A DNA stretch of 64,000 bases. It comes from Escherichia coli. GTDB lineage: Bacteria; Pseudomonadota; Gammaproteobacteria; Enterobacterales; Enterobacteriaceae. Under the pieces are notes generated by a model that was given only the letters and a program-made list of their open reading frames with translations, did not search any database and was not told where the DNA came from. The DNA lies in the NCBI RefSeq assembly GCF_003334385.1, contig NZ_QOWN01000011.1; one strand, written 5' to 3'. Both the position numbers and the translations under genes were made by a program. Of this stretch, positions 8,023 to 9,927 are shown one piece after another (positions within the stretch are counted from its first letter, which is position 1; the number at the start of each line of letters is the position of its first letter).

Positions 8023-8940
8023 ATGCTTATCTTTATCCCGATTCTCATTTTTGTCGCGCTGGTCATTGTCGGCGCGGGTGTCAAAATCGTACCGCAGGGC
8101 TATCAGTGGACAGTAGAACGCTTTGGTCGCTATACCAAAACGTTACAGCCGGGGCTCAGTCTGGTGGTGCCGTTTATGGATCGCATTGGTCGCAAGATCA
8201 ATATGATGGAGCAAGTGCTCGATATCCCTTCCCAGGAAGTTATCTCGAAAGATAACGCCAACGTTACCATCGACGCCGTGTGCTTTATTCAGGTGATTGA
8301 CGCGCCGCGCGCGGCTTATGAAGTCAGCAATCTGGAGCTGGCGATCATCAACCTGACCATGACTAACATCCGTACCGTGCTGGGTTCAATGGAACTTGAC
8401 GAAATGCTCTCTCAGCGCGACAGCATCAACTCACGCCTGCTGCGTATTGTCGATGAAGCCACCAACCCGTGGGGGATTAAAGTCACCCGTATTGAAATTC
8501 GCGACGTGCGCCCACCGGCAGAGCTTATCTCTTCAATGAACGCGCAGATGAAAGCGGAACGTACCAAACGCGCTTACATTCTTGAAGCGGAAGGGATCCG
8601 TCAGGCGGAAATCCTCAAAGCCGAAGGTGAAAAACAGTCGCAAATCCTGAAAGCGGAAGGCGAACGTCAGTCGGCGTTTTTACAGGCTGAAGCGCGTGAA
8701 CGTTCCGCCGAAGCAGAAGCCCGCGCCACCAAAATGGTGTCTGAAGCTATCGCCTCCGGTGATATTCAGGCGGTGAACTACTTCGTAGCGCAGAAATACA
8801 CCGAAGCGTTACAGCAGATCGGTTCCTCCAGTAACAGCAAAGTAGTGATGATGCCATTAGAGGCCAGCAGCCTGATGGGGTCGATTGCCGGGATTGCCGA
8901 GCTGGTGAAAGACAGCGCCAACAAACGGACTCAGCCATGA
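8023..8940 (+). CDS. qmcA: SPFH/stomatin-family membrane protein, 305 aa
   Basis: N-terminal TM helix followed by stomatin/band-7 domain and coiled-coil EAEG/KAEG repeats. Confidence 0.9.
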
Positions 8941-9395
8941 TGGAGTTAATGGTCGTTCATCCACATATTTTCTGGCTCAGTCTCGGCGGTTTGCTGCTGG
9001 CAGCCGAGATGCTGGGCGGAAATGGTTATTTGTTGTGGAGCGGCGTGGCAGCGGTGATTACCGGCCTGGTGGTCTGGCTGGTGCCGCTGGGTTGGGAGTG
9101 GCAAGGGGTAATGTTTGCCATCCTGACGCTGCTCGCCGCCTGGCTGTGGTGGAAATGGTTGTCGCGGCGGGTGCGCGAACAAAAGCACAGCGATAGTCAT
9201 TTAAACCAGCGCGGGCAGCAGCTGATTGGCCGACGTTTTGTGCTGGAATCTCCGCTGGTCAACGGGCGCGGTCATATGCGCGTCGGTGACAGTTCATGGC
9301 CTGTCAGCGCCAGCGAGGATCTCGGTGCAGGTACGCATGTTGAAGTCATTGCGATAGAAGGGATAACCCTACATATCCGAGCCGTCTCGTCTTAA
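8937..9395 (+). CDS. ybbJ: NfeD-like membrane protein partner of the SPFH protein, 152 aa
   Basis: Overlaps qmcA stop by 4 bp (ATGA); hydrophobic N-terminal two-thirds plus C-terminal beta-rich domain, as expected for NfeD. Confidence 0.85.
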
Positions 9396-9803
9396 TCACC
9401 CTGCCCGATGATGACAGCAGCCGGAGAGATTTTCGATAATCGGGCAGTCGGCGCTGTCATCGCCAGGGCAGGCATTCGCCAGTGCCAGCAGCTGGTCGCG
9501 CATGGATTGCAGCTCCTCAATGTGTCGTTCGATCTCCGCCACCTTCTCCAGCGTGCGCCGTTTGACGTCGGCGCTGTGCCGCTGCGGGTCGTTAAACAGA
9601 TTCACCAGCTCGCCGCTCTCTTCCAGGTTAAAGCCCACCTGCCGTGCCTGGCGCAGTAAGGTCAGTTCGTTGAGATGCTGCTGCGTGTAGGTGCGATAAC
9701 CGTTTTCGCTGCGCATCGGCGGCGTCACCAGCCCCTTCTCTTCATAGAAGCGAATGGCTTTGCTGGTCAGGCCGGTAATTTTTGCTACATCGCTGATGTT
9801 CAT
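9396..9803 (-). CDS. cueR: MerR-family copper-responsive transcriptional activator, 135 aa
   Basis: [28 protein letters not shown]; C-terminal [10 protein letters not shown] metal-binding loop; stop codon directly abuts ybbJ stop. Confidence 0.93.
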
Positions 9804-9927
9804 CGTTCGCGCAACGCCTCCTGTGCTTTGTTAAAGGGTTTCAACAGATATTCAAGCACGTTTTTTTGCCAGTGCGAATATCGACCGCCACCACAATAAT
9901 ACAGGAAGTACTGCGCACAGAGAGATG

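Follow-up and report, generated by a model that had tools for sequence, protein, structure and literature searches.

The abutting stop codons of ybbJ and cueR in Escherichia coli: a compact convergent junction with a possible conserved stem-loop in the cueR coding tail

Convergent neighbouring genes with overlapping transcripts are known in Escherichia coli as convergent excludons. The ExcludonFinder survey (NAR 2025, PMC12288877) reports 165 of them in strain MG1655. A pair is included there when its transcripts, as defined by RNA-seq, overlap in 50% or more of 58 data sets; Nanopore direct RNA data also showed 141 of the 165. Excludon pairs in general were reported to show higher synteny. 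The pair cueR-ybbJ is one of the 165. It features the same tail-to-tail neighbours, the overlapping transcripts and the short intergenic distance typical of the class; its membership rests on this arrangement and on the published overlap. The pair is distinguished by an overlap that is forced by a gap of 0 nt and ended by Rho, instead of by a terminator in the 3' UTR of the neighbour.

A second related system is provided by Rho-dependent transcripts. The study of Dar and Sorek 2018 (PMC6061677) describes transcripts of this type whose steady-state 3' ends are precise and lie a short way past stable stem-loops without U-tracts. These stem-loops shield the RNA against PNPase and RNase II, and rut sites follow directly downstream. 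A stem-loop at positions 9400-9472 of the DNA analysed here (a stretch of 64,000 nt of E. coli sequence, called the window below) resembles these structures: it is stable, has no U-tract, lies right after the ybbJ stop codon and is followed by moderately C-rich sequence, and a Rho stop is documented for the opposite strand of the same junction. It differs from the stem-loops presented there in that the opposing gene contains all of it within its coding sequence, and it is known from sequence instead of from a mapped 3' end.

Bidirectional intrinsic terminators are likewise comparable, as they and the 9400-9472 element each consist of one G+C-rich palindrome that sits at the meeting point of two genes and folds on both strands. 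The element described here, however, has no U-tract, lies in coding sequence and has an excess stability that is conserved on one strand only. Compact architecture of the same kind is found where convergent stop codons overlap by four bases, as in the hemH-aes, zapC-ycbX and yccX-tusE pairs of MG1655. The four-base form is also the one found at cueR-ybbJ in most Enterobacteriaceae, whereas in the window the stops touch (gap 0) and have no bases in common.

The window codes for the SPFH/Band 7 protein QmcA (8023-8940, + strand; ORF and RefSeq annotation), whose gene is the first of the qmcA-ybbJ operon and shares 4 nt of its 3' end with the start of ybbJ. Gene ybbJ (8937-9395, + strand; RefSeq and MG1655 annotation) codes an NfeD-family membrane protein of 152 amino acids and ends with a TAA at 9393-9395. 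On the opposite strand, cueR (9396-9803, - strand) codes the Cu(I)-responsive MerR-family regulator of 135 amino acids, its TGA being the complement of 9396-9398. The hexanucleotide TAA/TCA at 9393-9398 is read as the two abutting stops, with a gap of 0 nt and without overlap. That the two stop codons touch, as the first-pass annotation had reported from the letters, is borne out by the sequence, the ORFs, RefSeq and MG1655: RefSeq ends of ybbJ and cueR agree with the window ORFs in matching E. coli genomes, and the MG1655 annotation also has a 0-nt gap, with cueR at 513993..514400 (+) and ybbJ at 514401..514859 (-). The window shows the opposite strand to the MG1655 reference (subtracting a window coordinate from 523796 gives the MG coordinate), and the order of the locus in E. 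coli is fetB-fetA / qmcA-ybbJ / cueR-ybaT-glsA / copA. A 1-kb probe has 100% identity to many E. coli chromosomes.

All of CueR (residues 1-135 of 135) is covered by its match to the NCBIfam equivalog NF007590 (308.6 bits, cut-off 244), and the protein also matches TIGR02044 (207.5 bits, cut-off 147.4). The end-to-end match to the equivalog implies that the cueR stop is no annotation slip. The NCBIfam search of YbbJ gave no match; the Pfam NfeD domain (PF01957) was found in a ybbJ homologue.

How common such an arrangement is was estimated from three stretches of the MG1655 annotation that total 115 kb and hold 19 CDS-CDS convergent pairs. The gap is 0 or less in 5 of the 19, about a quarter: hemH-aes (-4), cueR-ybbJ (0), zapC-ycbX (-4), sxy-yccS (-38) and yccX-tusE (-4). 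Since five of the sampled convergent pairs have no intergenic DNA, the cueR-ybbJ arrangement is a common one and does not exceed what is expected by chance. All five appear among the 165 published convergent excludons (PMC12288877). The abutment of cueR and ybbJ is already known, being present in the reference annotation and having its transcript overlap catalogued, and the touching stops by themselves add little to these two sources.

A consensus scan of both strands found no hairpin-plus-T-run (intrinsic) terminator at the ybbJ/cueR junction. The earlier claim that the junction leaves no room for terminators holds to this extent. It fails in its wider sense, because termination signals can sit inside the opposing gene, and Rho stops cueR-sense RNA in qmcA. 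A weak terminator-like site on the + strand at 9755-9788, in the amino-terminal coding region of cueR, was not relied on; its T-run corresponds to the Lys codons of the conserved motif AK(K/I)TGLTSKA and its stem has only 4-8 weak pairs.

The evidence for Rho comes from Adams et al. (eLife 2021, PMC7815308), whose supplementary file 2 contains a Rho termination region at MG1655 514988 (+), labelled 'antisense qmcA'. The region is sensitive to the Rho inhibitor bicyclomycin (BCM): reads there number 61 upstream and 5 downstream in the -BCM sample, and 68 upstream and 86 downstream in the +BCM sample (Rho score 15.4, p = 2.7e-12). The region converts to window position 8808 (- strand), a coordinate that is approximate given the published resolution of 800-nt windows. 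As the MG1655 + strand is cueR-sense and 514988 corresponds to 8808, cueR-sense transcription is stopped by Rho within qmcA. According to the converted coordinate, the RNA reaches ~590 nt beyond the cueR stop, across the whole of ybbJ and then the last 130 nt of qmcA. This region is the sole qmcA entry in the supplements of PMC7815308, the four of which hold no 3' end or Rho region for cueR, ybbJ, ybaT or glsA. The TERMITe and SMRT-Cappable-seq supplements have no entry for cueR, ybbJ or qmcA, and for the ybbJ-sense strand neither a mapped 3' end nor a Rho region was found in these supplements or in those of PMC7815308. It had been proposed from the touching stops that each transcript reads into the opposing gene; the published data agree, the Rho region for the cueR-sense RNA (PMC7815308) and the excludome for the pair (PMC12288877).

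Base composition points to where Rho might load. The cueR read-through RNA has a C-rich, G-poor stretch at 8996-9155 (- strand; C 41-42%, G 19-23%, C/G 1.8-2.3), located 240-400 nt past the cueR stop and antisense to the membrane segment of ybbJ. It is a plausible candidate Rho-loading (rut) region, positioned upstream of the published termination region. In ybbJ-sense RNA a moderately C-rich segment is found directly 3' of the stem-loop, at 9473-9552 (+ strand; C 36%, G 24%, C/G 1.53). Its C enrichment is modest and it is a possible rut site for ybbJ read-through.

Inverted repeats and RNA folding define the long imperfect stem-loop at 9400-9472, which is present on both strands and contained in the last 25 codons of cueR. 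Its outer stem has 7 bp, the next one has 15 bp and a single bulge, and the apical stem has 4 bp. On the + strand it begins 4 nt past the ybbJ stop, and on the - strand 1 nt separates its end from the cueR stop. The minimum free energy is -41.2 kcal/mol on the + strand (z -4.22 against dinucleotide shuffles) and -39.1 kcal/mol on the - strand (z -3.16, same comparison). A U-tract 3' of the stem is absent on both strands, where the tails read CAUUCGCC (+) and GUGAUUAAGA (-), and the element is therefore not an intrinsic terminator. It lies wholly within cueR codons 111-135, which specify the metal-binding loop and the CCHH tail. Synonymous recoding of the cueR tail (3000 resamples) gave a mean of -24.4 ± 4.7 kcal/mol, and resamples as stable as the real tail made up 0.13% on the + strand and 0.5% on the - strand. 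A search of 8800-10000 against Rfam at E <= 1 returned no match.

Conservation of the stem-loop was followed in 81 species by aligning cueR codons 109-133, which align without gaps in the 81 sequences. Tails on the + strand fold with -29.0 kcal/mol, compared to -21.4 kcal/mol after synonymous recoding (median percentile 0.025), and 54 of the 81 species have a percentile of 0.05 or lower. The cueR-sense strand of the same tails shows no excess stability (-24.2 versus -23.0 kcal/mol, median percentile 0.465). A comparison of seven 25-codon windows of cueR across 27 species showed a deviation for codons 109-133 of the + strand alone, with a mean z of -1.73. The other windows have z values between -0.5 and +0.4, except for the first 25 codons on the sense strand (z +1.04), where avoidance of structure at the start codon is expected and serves as a positive control.

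A 19-pair core of the stem is paired in 94.4% of the alignment cells on the + strand and in 81.9% on the cueR-sense strand (81 species). The higher pairing on the + strand arises because the synonymous T/C changes that are frequent in cueR read as A/G on that strand, where they face U and G-U pairs are retained. Compensatory double changes were found at zero pairs of the stem among the 81 sequences, the variation being one-sided G-U wobble only; column shuffles of the alignment pair as well as the real alignment, and classical covariation evidence is absent. Nearly invariant synonymous sites occur in 9 of 107 conserved degenerate cueR codons. Three of the nine are in the stem, namely D116 GAC, S117 AGC and G128 GGC (hypergeometric p 0.037), and changes at their synonymous sites would break pairing on the + strand. 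The 81 species are related and the recoding tests are not independent; owing to this kinship, the signal of constraint on the + strand structure is only suggestive. The stem could also owe its conservation to constraints on the amino acids and codons of the metal-binding tail. A conserved excess of stability confined to the + strand fits the role of a protective 3' hairpin, and the sequences are suggestive of a strand-specific conserved hairpin in the cueR coding tail, a feature that is new here.

The tight junction is found well beyond E. coli. Scanning one genome per species with CueR yielded 80 Enterobacteriaceae loci, in nearly all of which ybbJ is the convergent neighbour of cueR. When convergent ORFs of 100 codons or more are considered, whatever their identity, 70 of the 80 species have one that ends between -14 and +5 nt relative to the stop of cueR. 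Five loci have an ORF that overlaps the cueR stop by 44-50 nt, two have a spacer (84 and 112 nt), and three were left without an assigned gap. The commonest gaps are -4 (45 loci), 0 (9 loci) and +3 (9 loci). The -4 form, with CTAG, TTAA or CTAA as the common bases, is that of Enterobacter, Klebsiella, Lelliottia, Leclercia, Pluralibacter, Yokenella and others; the gap is +3 in Kluyvera and some Kosakonia, 0 in Trabulsiella, -9 in Salmonella arizonae, -14 in Pseudenterobacter and +5 in Citrobacter sedlakii. A second class, made of most Citrobacter, Phytobacter, Siccibacter and some Kosakonia, has ~2.85 kb between ybbJ and cueR. In this class the ORF converging on cueR is one of 251 aa, with a 4-nt overlap at the cueR stop, and a PA5441-family gene comes after it. 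The CueR tail beyond residue 132 varies in length and sequence between genera. The 70 tight loci imply that cueR almost never has 3' intergenic DNA, whichever gene converges on it, and this family-wide absence of a 3' spacer after cueR is a new observation.

Within E. coli the junction is polymorphic. A 90-nt probe for the junction finds it uninterrupted in 3204 of 5426 complete genomes (59%), and the 1-kb probe breaks exactly at the ybbJ/cueR junction in many genomes. About 41% of the genomes carry an insert of 1.3 kb or 2.6 kb exactly at this point, and two alleles account for almost all of them. One allele, present in 966 genomes (~18%), has a 1.34-kb insert made of a REP element and a 407-aa ORF (orf408) on the ybbJ strand whose TAA abuts the cueR stop. 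The insert is full length in 311 genomes and has internal deletions or frameshifts in the other carriers. The product of orf408 has no Pfam, NCBIfam or PADLOC match. The gene abuts cueR also in E. albertii, E. whittamii and two further Escherichia species; Superficieibacter has a homologue (48% identity) at the same place, with a 4-nt overlap with the cueR stop, and the Salmonella enterica homologue (55% identity) is at a different locus. The other allele is an adhesin islet of 2.56 kb found in ~1237 genomes (~23%), including O157:H7. It codes a YadA-family adhesin and three small ORFs and ends 3 nt from the cueR stop. That the junction acts as an insertion point, or hot spot, is new here. On its other flank cueR has a deletion scar, a remnant of an HlyD gene.

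The end of YbbJ differs between the alleles. In both insert alleles it reads ..IIRAVIA, with the TGA inside the REP sequence gcctgatgcgacgctgacgcgtcttatca, and in the zero-gap allele it reads ..HIRAVSS, resembling ..RVRAVSST of Salmonella and ..HVRAITRS of C. sedlakii. The last 33 nt of zero-gap ybbJ are closer to Salmonella than the ybbJ end of the insert alleles is. The likeness of the YbbJ carboxyl terminus, taken together with the outgroup junctions, leads to the view that the zero-gap allele is probably ancestral and the inserts derived, although the other Escherichia species with orf408 and the Superficieibacter homologue make the polarity within Escherichia less certain.

These data bear on how the junction is to be understood. 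Precise loss of an islet, either orf408 or the YadA-type one, could have produced the zero gap recently, and this origin was considered first, in view of the inserts that 41% of E. coli genomes carry exactly at the junction and of the short similarity CTTA(A)TCAC at both insert borders. The presence of orf408 next to cueR in E. albertii, E. whittamii and two further Escherichia species, its 48%-identical homologue at the same place in Superficieibacter, and the scar left by the HlyD gene on the other side of cueR are also in its favour. It was downgraded by the outgroup comparison: the junction is tight in 70 of 80 species from many genera, the zero-gap YbbJ end resembles those of Salmonella and C. 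sedlakii, the insert alleles have their YbbJ stop supplied by the REP element, and no remnant of insert DNA is found at the junction. A recent deletion is accordingly held to be improbable. That one of the stops is not a real protein end, which would make the abutment unreal, might be argued from the variable CueR tail after residue 132 and from the lack of an NCBIfam match for YbbJ. This view is effectively refuted, with a negligible probability left to it, by the match of CueR to its equivalog from end to end, by the conservation of both ORFs with homologous carboxyl termini across 80 species and by the agreement of the RefSeq and MG1655 annotations.

A more consequential alternative is a true regulatory excludon in which each of cueR and qmcA-ybbJ represses the other, through colliding polymerases or through RNase III cleavage of the RNA duplex, coupling copper sensing to the SPFH/NfeD membrane system. 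The presence of the pair in the MG1655 excludome (PMC12288877), the coverage of the whole of ybbJ by cueR-sense antisense RNA (PMC7815308) and the conservation of the cueR-ybbJ neighbourhood and its tight junction across many genera, joined to the higher synteny of excludon pairs in general (PMC12288877), speak for it. The partner, however, is replaceable, as orf408 (~18%) or the adhesin islet (~23%) takes its place at cueR in E. coli genomes and other genes abut cueR in most Citrobacter, Phytobacter, Siccibacter and some Kosakonia. Reads from the cueR strand are low, 61 per 800 nt (PMC7815308). No anticorrelated expression of cueR and qmcA-ybbJ was found in the literature naming cueR with ybbJ, and the SdiA regulons paper (PMC11619404), which discusses both loci functionally, reports no link between them. 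Mutual repression of this kind is considered unlikely. Taken as a specific functional coupling, the interference between copper regulator and SPFH operon that the first-pass annotation had raised is left without support, the gene abutting cueR being interchangeable and the read counts low.

The explanation judged probable is that ybbJ/cueR is an ordinary, very compact convergent junction without a special device, where Rho would end transcription and the overlap is incidental. Ribosomes would leave at the cueR stop and expose naked RNA that is C-rich 240-400 nt downstream, where Rho would load and terminate transcription. Transcripts of qmcA-ybbJ that enter cueR are probably stopped by Rho too, with 3' exonucleases then shortening them as far as the stem-loop at 9400-9472. 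The stem-loop would encode the carboxyl terminus of CueR and at the same time protect the 3' end of the opposing mRNA. Some antisense overlap would be unavoidable in this arrangement, and mutual interference is probably weak and incidental instead of a copper-specific control.

Beyond this ordinary junction, the final 25 cueR codons may have a second role as a conserved, strand-specific RNA stem-loop of use to the opposing mRNA, whose 3' end it would protect in association with a Rho terminator; the stem-loop would be lent to any gene converging on cueR. The proposal is a tentative one, thought somewhat doubtful at present. It would explain why nearly all Enterobacteriaceae species sampled lack a spacer 3' of cueR, why the stop codons of three unrelated genes (ybbJ, orf408 and the 251-aa ORF) all lie only a few bases from that of cueR, and why new islets insert exactly at the junction. 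The natural alleles of E. coli (zero gap 59%, orf408 18%, adhesin islet 23%) offer a ready-made test of the effect of read-through on CueR levels. If the proposal is true, the cueR tail would be a dual-use coding sequence, in which the antisense of the tail of a regulator forms the 3' end of the mRNA of its neighbour, and it would help to explain how bacteria dispense with intergenic terminators.

In E. coli, the point at which the ybbJ and cueR stop codons abut (window 9395/9396) is occupied by one of two inserts in almost all genomes that depart from the zero-gap type of the window. The first is a 407-aa ORF, WP_033548309.1 (L002:6782-8005 in strain 19AR1724), that 966 of the 5426 E. coli genomes carry between the two genes, frequently in a decayed form. 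The second is a 2.56-kb islet (L004:9497-12054 in strain GPEC1446) with an autotransporter adhesin of the YadA family plus three small hypothetical ORFs, which is found between ybbJ and cueR in ~1237 E. coli genomes, O157:H7 among them. The insert alleles have a repetitive extragenic palindrome (REP) element fused to the end of ybbJ (L004:9485-9580 and L002:6653-6740). It provides the last two codons and a TGA stop, changing the YbbJ carboxyl terminus from ..AVSS to ..AVIA.

WP_033548309.1 gave zero matches to Pfam, NCBIfam and PADLOC. Its homologue in E. albertii is 89% identical and that of Superficieibacter, found at the same locus as in E. coli, 48% identical. The Salmonella enterica homologue (55% identity) is localized elsewhere, flanked by genes for a nucleoside hydrolase and an Hsp70-family protein. 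Distant homologues are present in Paenibacillus and Clostridium.

The spacing between cueR and ybbJ also varies among genera. In most Citrobacter, Phytobacter, Siccibacter and some Kosakonia the two genes are separated by ~2.85 kb (L013:4408-7238 in Citrobacter sp. MGH106), a segment that contains a gene for a 714-aa PA5441-family protein and a 251-aa ORF that matched no family, with a 4-nt overlap between the stop of this ORF and that of cueR. Enterobacter sp. Bisph1 is one of two species with a real spacer in the comparison of 80 species loci. In its 84 nt (L076:4409-4492) a clean palindrome (cagggagtgtacgcactccctg) is accompanied by a T-run, and the spacer therefore looks like an acquired terminator.

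Within the window, a sigma-70 promoter-like match (9411-9440, + strand; ATGACA and GATAAT separated by 18 nt, 10/12) lies inside the hairpin at the cueR 3' end and is directed antisense into cueR, its -10 hexamer being the complement of conserved Ile-Ile codons. A weak terminator-like hairpin followed by a T-run is found at 9755-9788 (+ strand), antisense to the cueR amino terminus coding region. The T-run is longer in other genera (TTTTTTT), out of Lys-Lys AAA codons, and two of the nine most constrained cueR synonymous codons, K8 AAA and T13 ACC, fall within the element. This element may be a coincidence arising from the helix-turn-helix motif.

The cueR 3' end is truncated by an IS1 insertion in E. 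coli E25 (L005:5240-6277). The sequence past IS1 jumps to the allantoin region, with a truncated cytosine-permease-family gene adjoining allB, which means that ybbJ and qmcA are deleted along with many genes around them. Strain E25 is a natural cueR carboxyl-terminal truncation mutant.

The "intergenic" DNA 5' of cueR is what is left, in frameshifted form, of the final ~32 codons of a gene for a type I secretion adaptor of the HlyD family (window 9800-9898, - strand), 93% identical to the intact L004 gene and carrying a 1-nt deletion. In L004-type strains there is a 4-nt overlap between the intact gene and the cueR start, and a giant SiiEA/BapA-like adhesin is encoded upstream of the gene together with the ABC exporter of that adhesin. 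The remnant, set beside this complete arrangement, indicates that the strain type of the window has lost the island. Where the island is present, cueR may be co-transcribed with it.
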